DNA from: a virus | Taxonomy: Duplodnaviria > Heunggongvirae > Uroviricota > Caudoviricetes | IMG/VR virus record: IMGVR_UViG_2718218135_000003 | Reading direction: 5' to 3' (one strand) | Length of the DNA: 35,116 bases | Shown here: one piece after another, positions 1,897 through 21,606 of the stretch | Numbering within the stretch: the stretch's first letter is position 1 | How the letters are laid out: each line of letters begins with the position of its first letter | Notes under the pieces: generated by a model | Told to the model about the DNA's origin: nothing | Seen by the model: the letters and a program-made list of their open reading frames with translations, nothing else | Database searches by the model: none | Translations under genes and position numbers: made by a program

Positions 1897-2910
1897 TTAC
1901 TCTACTGTGGACACGGTGTGGACACTCTCGGCTTCAGTACCACCTCTTAGCGGATTAAGAGAAATGGCGTCCTGAAGGTACTCTGGCGCAAAATGAGCGT
2001 AAACCATAGTTTGCTCAATCCGCGTGTGACCTAGTATCCGTTGTAGCGTGATAATACTTCCTCCATTAATCATGAAATGAGTGGCAAAGCTGTGCCTTAG
2101 TGCATGTGTGGCTTGCCCCGTTGGCAAATCCGGTTTTATTGCTTTCATTGTTCGTCTGAAGCGAGGGTAATCAGCATCAGGGAATAAAAAACCTCGTTTG
2201 TTATCCGCGATCATTTTGGCAACAGCCTCTGAGATCGGGACGGTGCGTGGTTTGTTTGTTTTCGTTTTAACAAACGTGACGCGGTTATGGATGATATTTT
2301 CTGCTTTCAAACGAGCTGCTTCTCCCCAACGTGCTCCTGTACTCAGGCAAAGAATCGCAATCTTTTTGTTGTCGCCGTCAAGTGCTGCAAGCAGTAAGGC
2401 AATTTCTTCCTGTGTGAGATAGCCTGTTTCTGGTTTTTCCTCCTTAAGCCTCTTTGTCCCTCTGATAGGGTGCTCACCAAAGAATAACTCCGCTTCAATC
2501 AGGGCTGTAAACATGCCGCTAATACATGTTAAATCACGATTGATACTCGAAGGTTTAATACCCTGACTTCTTCGGGTGGCGCAGTACTGGCTGATAAGGG
2601 ATTTCGTGATTTGAAATGCGCATGGGTCATTCGTTATTTTTGTGAAGATTTCAATTTTTCCAAGATTAGATTTCCCATGCTCTTCGTGTTTACCCTTTAA
2701 ATCCCACCAGATCTGTGTCAGTTCCGACAGACGTCGTTTGTCTGTTGGTTTTGATAGCCATTCTTTATTGTGGTGGTTGTACAACGTGTATTTTTCGAAA
2801 GCGACAGCTTCGCTTTTCTTATCAAACTTCCTACGGATGCGTTTTCCGTTACGTCCAGTAGGGCGGATGTCCACTTCATATCGACCATCATCGAGTTTTT
2901 TGATTGCCAT
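1897..2910 (-). CDS. int: P2-type integrase (tyrosine recombinase)
   Basis: 337 aa, same length as P2 Int; C-terminal catalytic residues (HxLRHSFATHF...GHTRIEQTMVYAH); position next to att core and C repressor. Confidence 0.9.
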   Translation of the reverse strand: MAIKKLDDGRYEVDIRPTGRNGKRIRRKFDKKSEAVAFEKYTLYNHHNKEWLSKPTDKRRLSELTQIWWDLKGKHEEHGKSNLGKIEIFTKITNDPCAFQITKSLISQYCATRRSQGIKPSSINRDLTCISGMFTALIEAELFFGEHPIRGTKRLKEEKPETGYLTQEEIALLLAALDGDNKKIAILCLSTGARWGEAARLKAENIIHNRVTFVKTKTNKPRTVPISEAVAKMIADNKRGFLFPDADYPRFRRTMKAIKPDLPTGQATHALRHSFATHFMINGGSIITLQRILGHTRIEQTMVYAHFAPEYLQDAISLNPLRGGTEAESVHTVSTVE

Positions 2911-3025
2911 CAGAAAACCCTCCGAGTGGTACTTTTTTTTGCTACTACTAATCGCTTTTTTCGTGGTGGCTGAAATTTAGCCACCAATAGTAGGCACTTG
3001 TGATGAATATATTCACGATAAATTG

Positions 3026-3325
3026 TTAACCAGTCTTTTGACCGGAGTGGGGCGACGTTGTTTCGTTTTGCCCAAAGTGTGCGAGAGCGGGCGCAATTTG
3101 CCCGGCTTCTGGAGCTACCTGATCAGTCATGAACCACAAAGTATATTTAGTAAATCTGGGATGTTGTAAGACCTTCATTATGGCTTCAACTCCAGCGTTT
3201 TTTGACCGGCTCTCATAGCTCGAAAGTGAGCTGTAGGCTACACCAGTTAATTCACTGAATTCTTTACGGTTTAACCTTTCAGATTCACGGATTAGCTTCA
3301 ACTTCTCCGAAACGTCTATTGACAT
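3026..3325 (-). CDS. C: Immunity repressor C (P2 C-like)
   Basis: 99 aa from internal ATG at 3325 (GGAG 6 nt upstream on minus strand); C-terminal half matches recalled P2 C (FTKYTLWFMTDQVAPEAGQIAPALAHFGQNETTSPHSGQKTG); divergent from cox. Confidence 0.85.
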   Translation of the reverse strand: MSIDVSEKLKLIRESERLNRKEFSELTGVAYSSLSSYESRSKNAGVEAIMKVLQHPRFTKYTLWFMTDQVAPEAGQIAPALAHFGQNETTSPHSGQKTG

Positions 3326-3402
3326 AATTACTCCGATTGCGTAATTTCTTGCTGATAGTGTGAAGTATTGTGCTTCTGGAGTTATCCTTTTAGGCAATAA
3401 TT

Positions 3403-3421
3403 AGCCATTAGGAGCCATTAG
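3403..3421. promoter_or_regulatory. Tandem direct repeats AGCCATTAG-g-AGCCATTAG in C/cox switch region (candidate operator half-sites)
   Basis: Two exact 9-mers at 10-bp spacing, followed by a degenerate third copy (AGCACTAAG), immediately upstream of cox; P2-type C repressors are known to bind direct repeats. No promoter elements confidently placed. Confidence 0.3.
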
Positions 3422-3446
3422 AAGCACTAAGGGAGAATCGTAGCAG

Positions 3447-3722
3447 ATGAATAGACAGCTTGTAAGCGTGACTGATGCCGTGCCTTATCAGGAGTTTGCA
3501 AAACTCATTGGTAAAACTCCAAGAGCTGTAAGGGGCATGATTGAGAAAGGGAAATTACCAGTTATTGAGATTACTGACCCTCAGTCAGTATCGGGGCGTG
3601 CTGGTGAATATTGGGTATACCTTCCGGCATGGAATAACGGACTAAAACTGGCTTATGAAAGCCGTCCTAAAGAAATTCGTGACGGCTGGTTGATGTGGTT
3701 AGGTCTCGGTGAACCACGTTAA
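3447..3722 (+). CDS. cox: Cox (excisionase / lytic-switch repressor)
   Basis: 91 aa, near-identical over most of its length to recalled P2 Cox (AVPYQEFAKLIGK...GRAGEYWVYLPAWNNGLKLAYESRPKEIRDGWLMWLGLGEPR). Confidence 0.9.
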   Translation: MNRQLVSVTDAVPYQEFAKLIGKTPRAVRGMIEKGKLPVIEITDPQSVSGRAGEYWVYLPAWNNGLKLAYESRPKEIRDGWLMWLGLGEPR

Positions 3723-3732
3723 GGAGAACCGT

Positions 3733-3903
3733 ATGAATGAGCCTCGTTGTATTGCTCAGTTATTGCGTAACGAAAGCCCCAGGGCGATTGACTTCACCAT
3801 CACCCACGGTAAGGGGCGTAAGGGAATCATTATCCGCACCAAAAAACAGAGTCCGTTAAAAAAGGCTCTGACCTTTCTGAAAAGCCGGAGGGTCTGGAAA
3901 TGA
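3733..3903 (+). CDS. Small early-operon protein (P2 orf78 position), hypothetical
   Basis: 56 aa from ATG at 3733 preceded by AAGGAG; basic protein; position between cox and B. Confidence 0.5.
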   Translation: MNEPRCIAQLLRNESPRAIDFTITHGKGRKGIIIRTKKQSPLKKALTFLKSRRVWK

Positions 3904-4400
3904 CAGTGATGACGCTCAATCTCGTTGAAAAACAGCCAGCAGCTATGCGCCGGATAATTGGTAAGCATCTGGCCGTCCCTCGCTGGCAGGAGACATGCGA
4001 TTATTATAATCAGATGATGGAACGCGAACGGCTAACGGTTTGCTTCCATGCGCAGTTAAAACAGCGTCACGCAACGATGCGTTTTGAAGAAATGAACGAC
4101 GTCGAACGTGAACGGCTGGTTTGTGCAATTGATGAACTGCGTGGGGCATTCTCAAAACGCCGTCAGGTCGGTGCAAGTGAGTATGCATATATTAGCTTTT
4201 TAACTGTCAGTCAGCGCCGTACTTTATTTATGCATGCCGGATTGACTGAAAAAGAATTCAACCAGCCATACTGGCGAATTAATGAAGAATCATGTTACTG
4301 GCGTGATGCCTTATTCCGTGCATTACGTGAATTATTCAGCCTGTTTGAGTATGCACCGACAATTCTGACGTCGGTAAAACCAGAGCAATATCTGCATTAA
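3900..4400 (+). CDS. B: Replication protein B (DnaB-helicase loader of P2)
   Basis: 166 aa, same length and position as P2 B; overlaps previous stop (ATGA). Confidence 0.8.
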   Translation: MTVMTLNLVEKQPAAMRRIIGKHLAVPRWQETCDYYNQMMERERLTVCFHAQLKQRHATMRFEEMNDVERERLVCAIDELRGAFSKRRQVGASEYAYISFLTVSQRRTLFMHAGLTEKEFNQPYWRINEESCYWRDALFRALRELFSLFEYAPTILTSVKPEQYLH

Positions 4401-4463
4401 GTAATTAACCAGAGTTTTTAACGCACTTAATTGTGCGGGGCTTCTTTTTGCCTGGAGAAAGTC

Positions 4464-4688
4464 ATGCATACAGTTTCTGAAAATCAGTGCGGTAAATACG
4501 CATTACTGCTGCAACAGGCCAGAACCGAAGCACAGGCCGACGCAGCGACGCGCTTTTCTTCTCATCTTGACGCCATGATTCGCCACATCACAAAGGCGGA
4601 GTTATCCCGCGTAGAGATAGTCGAGCTGCTCAGTCAGGAGTCGGAAAAATTTCACAATATCGGATTGTCTCGCGGGGAGGTGCTTTGA
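4464..4688 (+). CDS. Small early-operon protein (P2 orf80 position), hypothetical
   Basis: 74 aa from ATG at 4464 with GGAGAAAGTC upstream; earlier in-frame ATG lacks a ribosome-binding site. Confidence 0.5.
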
Positions 4689-8977: not shown

Positions 8978-9021
8978 GCTTAACGAAGTCATGTTGAGTT
9001 AATAACATTTTTTCGTTAAGC
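8978..9021. other. Long hairpin overlapping the RT stop codon (10-bp perfect stem, 24-nt loop with nested 5-bp stem)
   Basis: GCTTAACGAA (8978-8987) and TTCGTTAAGC (9012-9021) are exact reverse complements; inner ATGTT/AACAT pair at 8991-8995/9004-9008. Possible bidirectional terminator or structured RNA. Confidence 0.4.
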
Positions 9022-10559
9022 GCTGTGTTCCTTGTCGAATAAGTTCACTTCTTCTGGTGTAATATCATTATCCATTTCTTCGAATGCATCTAAATCCACA
9101 ATTTTTGTTTTTTTCAAAATTGATAGTATTTTCTGTTTGTTTTTACTTTTGGCTGAACCCGGAATCCACTCTACATCCCACAGGCCATCAATGGTAAATG
9201 TTTTTTTTCCCTTGAGTTCATCATTTATGCGTTGACATAGGGCTGTTTTGTAATCGCCTTCCCATTGTGTGTGTATCTTCCCTTGAACTCGTTGAAACCA
9301 AATATCTAACATTTCAGTATTTGGTTGTTTACCTAGTTTACAATGAAGTTGTTGTAACTTGCCAAATTTGAGTTCATCGTCGTCATAAAGGAAGGTCAAG
9401 AGTTTTGCGAAAATAGCCATTCCCACTGGGTAGGTGGTTGGGTTTTTAGCCATGATGCTTGAAATAATTCCAAGCATTGCATCTAGTTGATGCCCACTAT
9501 TTGTGATCTTTTTCTTCCTAAATAATTTTCGCAAGAAATCATTTAAATATCTAACTGTAATTTTGGAGTTTTGATGTTTTAAAGAAAATAAATATATTGC
9601 ATACAACATTTTCTGTAGGGAGTTGAACGACTTTTCTATAATATATTCTTTTTTTGCTGATTTAAGGGAGTGAAGAATGATGTCGTCATGTAGTTCTGTT
9701 TTTCTTGAGTTTAAATCAAGCCCAAACTCACCTAAGACCTCAACCAAACACTTTGAGATTTTGTCCAAATCATCTTTACTGCTTGAAAATATTCGATAAT
9801 CATCTCTGTAGCGAACTACTTTGTAATCCGTTATTTTTTGCTCTTCGGTTTTTTTCTTAGCTGTAAATCAATTTCGCCTAAAATTAATTCGGCAAATGTA
9901 TCCATCAACGTACTACCCAATGGTATTCCGTTTGTCTGATTACTCATCATCATCTGGATATGAGTGTCAATCAATCGTCCTGGGTTATTGTTATTTTCTT
10001 TCTTTTTGGCCTCTTCTTTTGAGATGAATACCCATTCAAAGCTATGAGTGTAAATAGAAGGGTAGAAGTTTGAAATATCTGTGCTGAACATGAACTCATA
10101 CTCAAGAGCCAATGAAAGACTTTTTTGTTCAAAATCTTCCCACCAGTTTAAAACAGATGCAGCTACGTTTGAGGTGTTCTTTTTGCTCACTGGGATACTT
10201 GAGCATAAAAAAAGATCATTAGACTCAAACTCTCTAAATTTATTCCTTATAGCATTCCAGTTGGAAGAGGATGTAATAAGTTTACAAAAATACACGTAGT
10301 ATAGAGGATTAATTAGTGTTATTCGTCGCCAGCTATATAAGCCATCTTTGCTGACTAAAACCTCGTAATTTATATTCTTCCCCATCAATGACTTGGAGTC
10401 AGGTTGGAAGTTGATTTTACCTTCATCTATCGCGGAGTTGATTTCTTCAAGCAAGGAAGAAAAATCGACATAACTGGGTAGCTCCAGAGTAGTGTATGAA
10501 TCATGCTGCAGAAAATACTTAAGCGCTCTACCAGTAGTTAATTCATAAATCTTTTTCAT
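9016..10559 (-). CDS. Abi-type reverse transcriptase (AbiK/Abi-P2-like), interrupted by a -1 frame change at an A7 tract (9849-9855); fused product about 514 aa
   Basis: N-terminal frame carries RT-like motifs (FSTDISNFYPSIYTHS; GIPLGSTLMDTFAELIL); the frame opening 5 codons upstream of its stop carries VVRYRDDYRIF (YxDD). AT-rich relative to flanks. Start at ATG 10559 (MKKIYELT) is an estimate. Confidence 0.7.
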
Positions 10560-10765
10560 AATTAGTGATTTCTTCTTAAGTTGCGCACAAATAACTACCT
10601 GTTTTCTATCATGATAACGATGCGAATGCGAGCAATTCAGGAAGTGCATTACTCTGCATCGAAGCGCACGCAAGTCAGAGAACAATAACTGCCTGGCGAC
10701 ATCAGGACTGGCGCGCTAGTTGAGTGGTCATGCAACTGCATTAAAACCGCCCCATGAAGCGGGCG

Positions 10766-19260: not shown

Positions 19261-19690
19261 TGCCGTCACGGTGCTGAAAACCAGTCCCGAGATGCTGCGG
19301 ATATTCGTGGATAACGGGAGTATTGCCTCCACGCTGGCGACGTCGTTGTCATTCGAAAAGCGTTACACGCTCAATGTGATTGTGACCGACTTTACCGGTG
19401 ATTTTGACCTGCTCATCGTGCCGGTGCTGGCGTGGCTGCGGGAAAATCAGCCCGACATCATGACCACCGATGAAGGCCAGAAAAAGGGCTTCACGTTTTA
19501 TGCGGACATCAACAATGACAGCAGCTTTGATATCAGCATCAGCCTGATGCTGACCGAGCGCACGCTGGTCAGTGAGGTGGACGGCGCGCTGCATGTGAAG
19601 AATATCCCGGAACCTCCGCCGCCGGAGCCGGTCAACCGTCCGATGGAGCTGTATATCAATGGCGAACTGGTGAGCAAGTGGGATGAATGA
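19223..19690 (+). CDS. R: Tail completion protein R
   Basis: 155 aa, P2 R length and position. Confidence 0.8.
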   Translation: MLKPDSLRRALTDAVTVLKTSPEMLRIFVDNGSIASTLATSLSFEKRYTLNVIVTDFTGDFDLLIVPVLAWLRENQPDIMTTDEGQKKGFTFYADINNDSSFDISISLMLTERTLVSEVDGALHVKNIPEPPPPEPVNRPMELYINGELVSKWDE

Positions 19691-20141
19691 GTTTAAGCGT
19701 TTTGAAGACCGGCTGACCGGACTGATTGAGTCGCTGTCACCGTCAGGGCGTCGGCGACTGGCGGTAGATATTGCGAAGAAGCTGCGCCAGCGCCAGCAGC
19801 AGCGAATTAAATTACAAAAAGCCCCGGATGGTACGCCGTATGTACCGAGAAAAAACCAACCAGTACGAAATAAGAAAGGCCGGATAAAGCGGGAAATGTT
19901 TGTGAAATTACGCACTAACCGGTTTATGAAAGCAACAGGTAGCGAGAGTGCGGCGGTGGTGGCGTTTGCCAGCGGAGTACAACGAATTGCGCGAGTACAT
20001 CAATTAGGGCTTAGGGATAAGCCGGGGCGTAATAGTGCTGTGGTGGAATATCCTGTTCGTGAGTTATTTGGTTTTGACAAGGAATCTATACAATTGATAG
20101 AAAGGGAGTTATTAGTGATTCTATCGAAAGATGTTATATGA
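19683..20141 (+). CDS. S: Tail completion protein S (3' portion compositionally atypical)
   Basis: 152 aa; N-terminal part matches recalled P2 S (MNEFKRFEDRLTGLIESLSPSGRRR); sequence from about 19850 is AT-richer, like the downstream cargo gene. Confidence 0.7.
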   Translation: MNEFKRFEDRLTGLIESLSPSGRRRLAVDIAKKLRQRQQQRIKLQKAPDGTPYVPRKNQPVRNKKGRIKREMFVKLRTNRFMKATGSESAAVVAFASGVQRIARVHQLGLRDKPGRNSAVVEYPVRELFGFDKESIQLIERELLVILSKDVI

Positions 20142-20893
20142 GACGGGTGTTTGTGGATAAAAAGTTTTCCATTTTGAGAAAAAGAGTAAAGCATTCTCAA
20201 AAGAAAGTTATGGATTGTATTATTGCTGACCATAATGCTGATATATGTGTGTTATGCGGGAGTTCTGACGATATTACTCGTGAGCACATTATTCCTCAGT
20301 GGGCCTTTGAGTCAAATGCTGAAAAATCTTTAATTAATAAAAAGAATAATCAGTCAACTCATTACATTAAAGCCACTGTACCAGCATGCAGAGTGTGCAA
20401 TTCTGATTTGCTGGGAGTGTTTGAGTATAACCTGAAGAAATTTCTTACGGAAAAGAGAGGGGAGGAGTTAACAGATTATGAGTATGATTGCATCATATGG
20501 TGGTTGCAATACATGGGTTTTAAGTTGCAATTAATGGATTTGCGGAACCGCTTTCTCAGGTATAAAGGTGGTGATTATATCCCGTTTCTTGCAAACTTCC
20601 CGGTTGCAATGTTTTGGGGGAATGTCGATACGACGCCGGGGGATGTCTTCAGGATTATACGAAAATCGCGACGCAATCTGATGTCGAAATGGAAGGATAA
20701 AAAACATAATTCTTTGATGGTTTTTGAAACATCAAACAAGAGTTTTCATTTCTTTCATAAGGTTGATGAATTTATTTTTATTGAAATTCCTCAGGTTAAG
20801 AAGGCGTTTTTCTTCTTTTTTAATAAAGAATTTGACAGCCATGATTTAGCTCATGAGGAGTGTATGAAGATTATAGAGAAGTGCTACAACTAA
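20138..20893 (+). CDS. Cargo gene between S and V: putative HNH-family nuclease (CxxC...EHIIP...CxxCN), unknown function
   Basis: 251 aa, strongly AT-rich and Lys/Phe/Asn-rich, unlike flanking tail genes; ICVLCGSSDDITREHIIPQWAFE ... PACRVCNSDL resembles an HNH zinc-finger core; ATG overlaps the S stop (ATGA); no counterpart in P2. Confidence 0.6.
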   Translation: MRRVFVDKKFSILRKRVKHSQKKVMDCIIADHNADICVLCGSSDDITREHIIPQWAFESNAEKSLINKKNNQSTHYIKATVPACRVCNSDLLGVFEYNLKKFLTEKRGEELTDYEYDCIIWWLQYMGFKLQLMDLRNRFLRYKGGDYIPFLANFPVAMFWGNVDTTPGDVFRIIRKSRRNLMSKWKDKKHNSLMVFETSNKSFHFFHKVDEFIFIEIPQVKKAFFFFFNKEFDSHDLAHEECMKIIEKCYN

Positions 20894-20970
20894 TATTTGT
20901 TATGTTGTGTCACAGCTGACAGAACCCTCCATGATTGCTGCTGGTATCGTCCAGCGGCATCCTTCCCGTT

Positions 20971-21606
20971 ATGAACACTCTCGCAAATATTCAGGAACTC
21001 GCGCGCGCACTGCGCAATATGATTCGCACCGGCGTTATCGTCGAAACCGACCTTAACGCCGGTCGCTGCCGTGTGCAGACCGGCGGCATGTGCACCGACT
21101 GGCTTCAGTGGTTGACCCATCGTGCCGGGCGTTCGCGTACATGGTGGGCACCTTCCGTGGGGGAACAGGTGCTGATTCTGGCCGTGGGCGGTGAACTTGA
21201 CACGGCGTTTGTTCTGCCGGGGATTTATTCCGGTGATAACCCCGCGCCGTCTGCGTCGGCGGATGCCCTGTATATCCGTTTCCCTGACGGGGCGGTGATT
21301 GAGTATGAACCCGAAACCAGTGCACTCATGGTAAGCGGAATTAAAACGGCCAGCGTGACGGCTTCTGATTCTGTTACTGCCACGGTGCCGGTGGTCATGG
21401 TGAAAGCATCAACCCGCATCACCATGGACGCACCGGAGGTGGTCTGCACCAACAGGCTGATTACCGACACGCTGGAAGTGCAGAAGGGCGGGACGATGCG
21501 CGGCAACATTGAACACACCGGCGGTGAACTCTCATCAAACGGTAAGGTACTGCATACCCATAAACACCCCGGCGACAGCGGCGGCACAACCGGGAGTCCT
21601 CTATGA
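20971..21606 (+). CDS. V: Baseplate spike protein V
   Basis: 211 aa from MNTLANIQELARALRNMIRTG, matching recalled P2 V; the track ORF begins at an upstream TTG. Confidence 0.85.
   Translation: MNTLANIQELARALRNMIRTGVIVETDLNAGRCRVQTGGMCTDWLQWLTHRAGRSRTWWAPSVGEQVLILAVGGELDTAFVLPGIYSGDNPAPSASADALYIRFPDGAVIEYEPETSALMVSGIKTASVTASDSVTATVPVVMVKASTRITMDAPEVVCTNRLITDTLEVQKGGTMRGNIEHTGGELSSNGKVLHTHKHPGDSGGTTGSPL

Follow-up and report, generated by a model that had tools for sequence, protein, structure and literature searches.

What is an AT-rich gene doing between 2 tail genes of a P2-like prophage? The question is raised by the IMG/VR virus record IMGVR_UViG_2718218135_000003, a stretch of 35,116 nucleotides (hereafter the window), in which an open reading frame (ORF) on the plus strand (20138..20893) stands between the tail completion gene S and the baseplate spike gene V. 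An initial annotation, made by a model without database searches, read this ORF as an HNH-like nuclease gene inserted among the tail genes. We find that it is a conserved gene of the HNH superfamily that occupies a recognized cargo slot, had been noticed before, and already carries an automatic HNH label. The explanation that we prefer, tentatively, is that it encodes a stand-alone HNH nuclease whose C-terminal domain serves in targeting or self-restraint, carried as conflict cargo against phages, satellites, or foreign DNA.

Coding potential, start site, and earlier records of the gene

The ORF encodes a protein of 251 aa (hereafter the ORF protein), and the AT-rich, Lys/Asn/Phe-rich character and poly-F stretch ascribed to it were confirmed, as were its coordinates. 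GC content is 0.36 overall (0.28-0.45 in 200-nt windows), compared with 0.47 in S, 0.61 in V (windows of 0.57-0.64), ~0.56-0.64 across R, V, W, and J, and ~0.57-0.58 in the flanks of the ORF. Lys makes up 10.8%, Phe 9.2%, and Asn 6.0% of the protein, while Lys and Phe in V and J account for 0.9-2.4%. The motifs that attracted attention are CVLC at residues 37-40, EHIIPQ at 49-54, PACRVCN at 82-88, and AFFFFFNKEF at 223-232. When the 756 nt were shuffled, the longest open frame had a mean of 55 codons and a maximum of 129; since homologs are in addition under purifying selection, the 251-aa frame is not a product of chance. Comparison of the ORF with its homologs gave pN of 0.21-0.30 with pS saturated, and dN/dS against the copy in phage R18C is ~0.19. 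The ORF is real and conserved, and purifying selection acts on it.

The start codon is less clear. The junction with S reads ...GTT ATA TGA / ATG AGA..., and the ATG of the ORF shares ATGA with the S stop codon, just as the initial annotation had it. Whether this ATG is the true start is uncertain, because the conserved start of the family, MDKKF, maps to a GTG at 20153, which would give a protein of 246 aa. R18C has an ATG at that position, and its copy is annotated as 246 aa in RefSeq. The ATGA-overlapping start is possible, not certain.

Among 50,697 phage records R18C alone carries the gene, at 98% identity (gp15 or ORF16). The PHROG family phrog_10503, labeled as of unknown function, matches the ORF protein over its full length (1.6e-181), and an identical protein occurs on 636 contigs, automatically named "HNH endonuclease" in UniRef (A0A241QPT7) and labeled hypothetical by NCBI. 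The R18C paper describes the same ORF as a 741-bp hypothetical gene standing in place of P2 ORF30 between S and V, one of the 3 moron regions of P2-like phages, and reports it as a moron in which PSI-BLAST revealed no motif; R18C is a virulent phage that has retained the gene (PMC6823313). Literature searches for a characterized nuclease in the S-V slot yielded only this description.

A predicted HNH core in the N-terminal module

The HNH-like zinc-finger core occupies residues 37-88 (20246..20401, plus strand) and follows the pattern C37-x2-C40 ... T47-x-E49-H50-x2-P53-x-W55 ... N70-x-Q72 ... Y76 ... P82-A-C84-x2-C87-N88. Sixteen of these positions, namely C37, C40, G41, T47, E49, H50, P53, W55, N70, Q72, Y76, P82, A83, C84, C87, and N88, are invariant in 20 homologs of 41-98% identity. 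The core belongs to an N-terminal module (residues 30-137; 20225..20548, plus strand) that also contains 2 long helices, including a conserved WWLQY..FKLQ helix, and this module is shared across the superfamily. Searching 1.84 billion representatives with a family profile gave 868 matches, about 25 of them full-length clusters; many of the matches are proteins of 300-360 aa that share the N-terminal ~105 residues only (profile positions ~25-130). The pattern CxxC..(T/S)xEH..PxW..N..Y..P(A/C)CxxCN is found in more than 100 of the distant relatives, and C, C, E, H, P, W, C, C, N, E, and W are invariant in a superfamily alignment of 26 sequences (A3). A second, word-indexed homolog search with an N-terminal alignment returned 215 candidates and added little beyond the relative P0195.

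The only Pfam family to recur across the ORF protein and its relatives is HNH_5 (PF14279), which was matched at E<=0.01 by 17 of the 20 relatives scanned. Three of these pass the HNH_5 cut-off (P0129 with 31.4, P0182 with 29.9, and P0195 with 28.2 bits), and the same 3 are matched by our family or N-terminal profiles at 6.8e-11, 1.6e-8, and 9.1e-10, respectively. Because they satisfy both tests, homology of the ORF protein to HNH_5 is established transitively. In a sequence search of the PDB with the N-terminal profile, 4 of the 6 best matches were HNH nucleases, among them Gme HNH of Geobacter metallireducens (4H9D), at weak E values of 0.06-0.25. Both halves of the motif are collinear in the HNH chains that top this search, including 4H9D, in which VPACKECNN aligns with C84-x2-C87-N88 of the ORF protein. 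Like the ORF protein, HNH_5 and Gme HNH have 2 CxxC pairs, T-x-(D/E)-H-x-x-P, and (V)P-A-C-x-x-C-N, in the same order. The full-family profile gave chance matches only in the PDB sequence search, and an NCBIfam search of the ORF protein gave no match.

Three features that mark the superfamily are present in the sequence. A putative general-base His follows an acidic residue (E49-H50, invariant in the 20 homologs and in the 26-sequence alignment), a putative metal-ligand Asn stands at a helix start (invariant C84-x2-C87-N88), and 2 invariant CxxC pairs, C37/C40 and C84/C87, form a predicted zinc site. The HNH-type spacing seen in the initial annotation therefore holds at the level of sequence homology, with the CxxC pairs, E49-H50, and the Asn of CxxCN unchanged down to 41% identity. 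The HNH reading is supported, not proven, by transitive homology and by predicted catalytic residues that are intact.

Two relatives that carry the N-terminal module are considerably larger. P0186 (595 aa, ENA metagenome) fuses it to an OTU-like cysteine protease domain (Pfam OTU, 1e-08), and P0183 is 619 aa long. These architectures suggest that the N-terminal module is combined with differing C-terminal effector or sensor domains.

Predicted structure and the C-terminal domain

An AlphaFold2 (AF2) domain model of the N-terminal module, with a predicted local distance difference test score (pLDDT) of 89.5, has the order beta, inserted hairpin, beta, helix, helix. The spacing between EHIIP and TVPAC is ~26 residues in the ORF protein versus ~11 in 4H9D, and the ~15 extra residues between the core strands are modeled as a small hairpin that bears N70, Q72, and Y76, an addition that sets the ORF protein apart from HNH_5 and 4H9D. 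A further difference from these lies beyond the core, which is followed by the 2 long helices and then by a domain of 110 residues that has no relative in Pfam or the PDB. This C-terminal domain (residues 140-251; 20555..20890, plus strand) contains a conserved basic stretch (R175, R178, R179, K184, K186, and K189), an FHFFHK strand in which H207 is invariant, and the poly-F stretch, which is predicted to be a beta strand. It is modeled, at lower confidence, as a 4-stranded sheet with helices. A Pfam scan of the C-terminal half gave no match, and neither sequence nor fold comparison matched it to an entry of the PDB. Foldseek comparison of the full model with the PDB returned nothing under E 0.8, and HNH enzymes were not recovered in the fold searches.

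These departures from the usual HNH layout raise the question of whether the protein cuts at all. It could instead be a non-catalytic zinc-ribbon protein that keeps an HNH-like scaffold for binding nucleic acid or protein, for instance as a regulator or inhibitor. The canonical middle Asn is not at its usual place beside the VPAC strand, the 15-residue insertion parts the core strands, fold searches failed to retrieve HNH enzymes, and there is no immunity partner in spite of the potential toxicity of a nuclease. However, the general-base His, the acidic residue that precedes it, and the helix-capping Asn are invariant throughout the superfamily, as would be expected if catalysis is selected, and the insertion itself holds an alternative invariant Asn, N70. 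We regard a purely binding role as improbable.

Occupancy of the S-V slot

In P2 itself (NC_001895) the interval between S and V holds an annotated terminator and Orf30, a nonessential gene of 261 aa on the minus strand, while in L-413C and most other relatives S is separated from V by 66 nt. The initial annotation had P2 pass directly from S to the V promoter and took the ORF for an insertion where P2 has nothing. Both statements need correction: the direct S-66 nt-V arrangement belongs to L-413C and most relatives, and the site is a known moron slot in which this very gene had been described in R18C (PMC6823313).

The gene follows S directly in all P2-like contexts examined (Klebsiella, Enterobacter, Kluyvera, soil metagenomes, and IMG/VR loci), and lies directly 3' of S in all 49 of the IMG/VR viral loci, at 45-100% identity. 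The gap between S and the gene is 0-41 nt in all lineages, with a 4-nt overlap here and gaps of 12-41 nt elsewhere. V starts ~80 nt past the ORF stop in 44 of the 49 viral loci; 4 others have an extra 1-1.2 kb of cargo, and 1 has a truncated copy. Between lineages the ORF protein is 53-68% identical, compared with 55-75% for R, S, V, and W. Since its divergence matches that of R, S, V, and W, and since pS is saturated, the gene is an old resident of the slot and not a recent arrival.

Despite this age, the gene is rare. In 5426 complete genomes of E. coli it occurs at 79 places in 77 genomes, always beside S, while V occurs at 1810 places. It is thus present in this recognized P2 moron region in ~4% of the E. 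coli P2-like loci and absent from ~96% of them, and P2, 186, and L-413C themselves lack it. The gene is optional, dispensable cargo of the S-V moron slot.

This distribution speaks against a structural or assembly component of the tail, the outcome that would have overturned the initial annotation. Such a role might be suspected from the position between S and the spike gene V, the coupling to S, and the co-divergence with tail genes. A tail component would not be expected to be absent from most P2-like phages, including well-studied infectious ones, to occur in non-phage contexts (see below), or to carry a nuclease-type motif. We consider this role exceedingly improbable.

Other genes occupy the same slot. 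In Klebsiella loci (L006/L007/L008 6926-7576, minus strand) a 216-aa gene lies on the opposite strand between the ORF and V, a 347-aa gene lies there in L016 (4285-5328), and 4 loci (L090, L093, L094, and L099) have inserts of ~1-1.2 kb between the ORF and V. Together with P2 Orf30, these occupants make the S-V slot a multi-cargo hotspot. A Pfam scan of P2 Orf30, the Klebsiella 216-aa gene, and the L016 347-aa gene gave no match. Two of the loci have unexpected host labels: L015 comes from a metagenome-assembled genome labeled Sporobacter termitidis and L016 from an assembly labeled Chryseobacterium sp. 18061. Both are Enterobacterales-type P2-like prophage segments, with best S and V matches of 72-91% identity among the query alleles (window, P2, Klebsiella, soil metagenome, and Enterobacter), and this looks like contamination or mis-binning and not like true hosts.

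Relatives outside the S-V slot

Full-length members at 36-41% identity are found in Vibrio, Photobacterium, Shewanella, Halomonas, Bacteroidota, Desulfobacterales, and a Gracilibacteria genome, in all cases away from S or V genes. No conserved neighbor or partner gene was found around the distant members, which indicates that the gene is a single-gene unit. Chromosomal islands that harbor such members have in their flanks 3 integrases, a Mrr-type enzyme, and matches to PDC-M02A/B, PDC-S31, PDC-S37, Mokosh-like, and AbiZ systems. In Erwinia, a copy closes the tra operon of a conjugative element and has an integrase and a KAP NTPase as neighbors. A member of 37% identity (IMG/VR contig 2831541896_000001, L113 621-5996) is part of a defense-like cluster with a ThsB-TIR-like protein, DUF4062, 2 8xMP membrane proteins, and a T5orf172/MUG113 protein. 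On another viral contig a member lies beside a Dam methylase just beyond tail gene D, the other accessory hotspot of a P2-like element, and 1 distant member is located just upstream of a lambda-type portal and an S49 protease.

Mosaic import of the S-ORF block

Gene S (19683..20141, plus strand; 152 aa; Pfam Phage_tail_S, 2.5e-29) is a mosaic. Its codons 1-25 are 100% identical to those of P2 S, while from aa 26 to 152 the identity is 45% with P2, 73% with the S of a Klebsiella prophage carrying the same ORF, and 60-70% with S of the 186/PSP3 type. Alignment with P2, L-413C, and R18C shows S leaving the P2 allele at ~nt 75 (window ~19757). Codons 26-152 are thus an allele of the 186/Klebsiella type, in an S gene of full length. 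The initial annotation had noted a composition shift in S from about 19850 and attributed it to replacement of the native C-terminus; the departure from P2 lies upstream of that point, and the product is a complete Phage_tail_S protein. We considered whether this S allele and the ORF functionally require each other and rejected the idea, since 186, PSP3, and others possess S of this type but not the ORF; the linkage is hence physical and not obligatory.

Genes R, V, W, and J of the window match P2 at 95-100% identity. The stretch that follows the ORF resembles the Enterobacter lineage as far as the conserved GGCATCCTTCCCGTTATG immediately ahead of V, and similarity to L-413C resumes shortly before the V ATG at 20971. 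Because S beyond codon 25 and the ORF-V gap are of non-P2 type while R, V, W, and J are P2-like, a block of ~1.19 kb (approximately 19757..20945, plus strand) must have entered a P2-type backbone by recombination; it comprises the ORF together with the 3' five-sixths of S on one side and the upstream, activator-site part of the V promoter on the other. Aligning the S-V junction with P2 and its relatives, as had been proposed, thus provided bounds for an import and did away with the idea of an insertion into an empty P2 site.

Could the gene have moved itself? During mixed infection, a selfish free-standing HNH homing endonuclease would cut the S-V junction, or S, of a phage lacking the gene, and repair from the genome bearing the gene would then copy it across, along with adjoining S sequence. 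Free-standing phage HNH homing endonucleases such as I-HmuI and the T4 Mob-type enzymes are intergenic, optional, AT-rich, late-expressed, and transferred with flanking sequence, and the T4 seg and mob genes are likewise AT-rich and late-expressed and have no promoter of their own. The ORF resembles them in each of these respects, late expression being predicted here: its presence or absence is polymorphic at 1 precise intergenic site between 2 conserved genes, and it arrived accompanied by the V activator site and by ~385 nt of S of foreign origin, much like a co-conversion tract. The divergent S allele could moreover give immunity at the target site. Among the E. coli loci the S'-ORF block is slightly more uniform (97-100%) than its flanks (90-99%), which would also suit homing. 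This difference is only slight, and the idea that the cassette is much younger than the backbone in E. coli was rejected for that reason.

Several observations stand against homing, however. Full-length members occupy many non-homologous sites, including an integrative and conjugative element (ICE), variable chromosomal islands of Vibrio, Shewanella, and Bacteroidota, and another P2 hotspot, so that the family is not confined to cognate loci. Recognizable homing modules, namely the NUMOD, IENR1, AP2, and helix-turn-helix (HTH) DNA-binding modules typical of phage HNH homing enzymes, were not found with Pfam. The gene is under strong purifying selection and has diverged in parallel with the tail genes down to 45% identity, which points to long vertical residence. 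Only ~4% of the E. coli P2-like prophages have the gene despite abundant opportunity, and unrelated cargo uses the same slot. We judge homing to be unlikely, though it is the main alternative.

The block ends in the regulatory region of V. A conserved element, GTTGTGTCACAGCTGACA (20904..20921, plus strand), with the dyad TGTCA-N4-TGACA, starts 11 nt past the ORF stop and aligns with the annotated activator-binding site of the V late promoter in P2 (feature 10239-10266); GTTGT is invariant in 6 phages. V itself (20971..21606, plus strand; 211 aa; Pfam Phage_base_V, Phage_spike, and Apex; 95% identical to P2 V) opens the next late operon. Between the activator site and the V start there is an 8-bp hairpin, GCTGCTGG-TATCGT-CCAGCGGC, at 20941-20962. 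It is conserved, with compensatory changes, in L-413C (GCCGCCGG...CCGGCGGC) as well as in the Enterobacter and soil lineages, and P2 is without it.

Predicted expression

Consensus scans, from which weak signals may escape, detected nothing promoter-like on the plus strand in the part of S that precedes the ORF, and nothing terminator-like from S through the ORF to V. Scanning and manual reading of the AT-rich 3' end of S for an internal promoter gave nothing convincing or conserved. The P2 O-operon terminator is missing from the window, and the ORF starts either on the S stop codon or, at the family-conserved position, 12 nt past it. By consensus scan the gene thus lacks the promoter and terminator of its own that mark an autonomous moron. 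Given this lack and the tight coupling to S, the gene would be the last cistron of the late O operon, translationally coupled to S. The co-expression with late tail genes that the initial annotation assumed fits this anatomy, and the retention of the gene in the virulent R18C fits a role in lytic growth.

The arrangement differs from that of P2 Orf30, with which the ORF shares its S-V location and its character of AT-rich, nonessential cargo. Orf30 is an unrelated protein encoded on the opposite strand behind a terminator and must therefore have its own promoter. The ORF, in contrast, is co-oriented with S and coupled to it, has no promoter- or terminator-like site by scan, and keeps its position down to 45% identity.

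A late cistron might serve the lytic cycle directly, as a helper nuclease that degrades host DNA or scavenges nucleotides, takes part in DNA processing or packaging as HK97 gp74 does, or counters host defense. Its co-orientation and coupling with late morphogenesis genes, the lack of any sign of lysogenic expression in the scans, its ancient, fixed position in several P2-like lineages, its retention in R18C, and the distant member next to the lambda-type portal and S49 protease genes are all compatible with this. Yet ~96% of the E. coli P2-like prophages, as well as P2, 186, and L-413C, do without the gene, and the members in the ICE and in chromosomal islands have no phage lytic cycle to aid. 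Nor does it look like a terminase-associated HNH protein of the HK97 gp74 type, as it is situated several kilobases from the terminase genes in related loci and is missing from most P2-like phages. A helper function in the lytic cycle is, in our estimation, quite unlikely.

A model for the ORF protein

Our preferred reading, that of a conflict nuclease, can be laid out as follows. The protein would be a stand-alone HNH (beta-beta-alpha-metal) nuclease closest to Pfam HNH_5, in which the 4 invariant cysteines hold a structural zinc, H50 acts as the general base primed by E49, and N88 together with N70 positions the catalytic metal, the ~15-residue insertion forming a small hairpin between the 2 core strands. 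Because there is no partner or immunity gene, the basic C-terminal domain most likely serves to select the nucleic acid to be cut or to protect the carrier from the enzyme. The protein would probably be made late in lytic growth from the O-operon transcript, and the nuclease would then cut the DNA of co-infecting or superinfecting phages, of satellites, or of other foreign elements.

A possible parallel is McrA of prophage e14, a type IV enzyme and solitary prophage HNH nuclease with a second domain and without a methylase or immunity partner. The ORF is likewise a single prophage gene encoding an HNH domain and a second domain, with neither partner. It differs from McrA in that its HNH domain is N-terminal, the domain order being reversed, in that no sequence similarity was detected, and in that its expression is predicted to be late and not lysogenic. 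We infer that the protein resembles a solitary type IV-like or abortive-infection nuclease more than it does a tail component. The defense cargo of the P2 old/tin and Z/fun regions offers another comparison: these too are variable accessory genes of P2-like prophages, and distant relatives of the ORF are found among defense genes. However, the S-V slot lies outside the mined hotspots, and the ORF protein has neither a PADLOC match nor signals of autonomous expression.

A number of observations weigh against the conflict reading. The HNH_5 score of the ORF protein itself, 16.2 bits (E 0.0099), is below the gathering cut-off of 27.5, and the alignment spans profile positions 1-21 of 56 only. PADLOC-DB v2 (2023) contained no real match to the ORF protein (the best, at E 0.03, is noise), and PADLOC run on 10 distant relatives gave no match. 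The profile check that the initial annotation called for was therefore borne out by the recurrence of HNH_5 and by the 3 relatives above threshold, and not by the ORF protein itself or by the defense profiles. The authors of the R18C study found no function for the gene (PMC6823313). Many of the chromosomal neighbors of distant members are housekeeping genes, and the defense association of those members, which derives from raw neighbor lists with no background comparison, is modest. Defense cargo typically turns over fast, whereas this gene has kept a fixed position and has diverged deeply in step with the tail genes. Finally, expression from a late operon would not protect the lysogen, barring an unseen internal promoter.

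There is also a bolder version of the conflict reading. The ORF protein would then be a new single-protein conflict nuclease, made of an HNH core and a novel target-sensing domain, encoded in a fourth, unmined P2 hotspot, and used, in a manner unusual among prophage cargo, as a late-operon, lytic-phase weapon against co-infecting phages or P4-type satellites, not as protection of the lysogen. We hold this bolder version to be unlikely. In a more exotic form of it, the nuclease would be loaded together with the neighboring spike protein V, and the tail would deliver it.

Other AT-rich islands in the window

The window contains further AT-rich DNA. An AT-rich island at the expected place of the P2 old/tin hotspot (9016-10685, minus strand) encodes an AbiP2-type defense reverse transcriptase (PADLOC AbiP2/DRT). 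It is split into 2 ORFs, of 284 aa (model positions 4-240, 3e-91) and 250 aa (265-487, 2.6e-50), and is probably frameshifted or otherwise interrupted near 9770-9830. Additional AT-rich stretches, with GC of 0.37-0.43, are found at 1001-1500 and 2501-4500, the latter including a gene for a 123-aa HTH protein (3026-3397, minus strand). The ORFs of these stretches gave no PADLOC match, and the region is probably the immunity/integration region of the prophage.

Implications

P2-like prophages have been a productive source of anti-phage systems. Defense mining of their hotspots covers old/tin, Z/fun, and the tail-to-C region, and S-V is not included (Rousset 2022, PMC9122126; PMC13586616; bioRxiv 10.1101/2024.10.15.618418). 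The gene described here is a compact single-protein candidate from this slot, with a recognizable predicted catalytic core and a second domain without relatives, and, as it is compact and its conservation extends from E. coli to Vibrio and Bacteroidota, testing it would cost little. Should it prove to be a homing endonuclease after all, it would clearly illustrate how homing without an intron shapes the mosaicism of tail genes in P2-like phages; should neither conflict nor homing hold, it would be one more uncharacterized HNH protein. We regard the gene as being of moderate interest, a candidate weapon in conflict between phages that adds no new kind of system. That it is coupled to an operon of late structural genes is unusual and raises the question of whether temperate phages carry nucleases for use against competitors during their own lytic growth, and not for the benefit of the lysogen.

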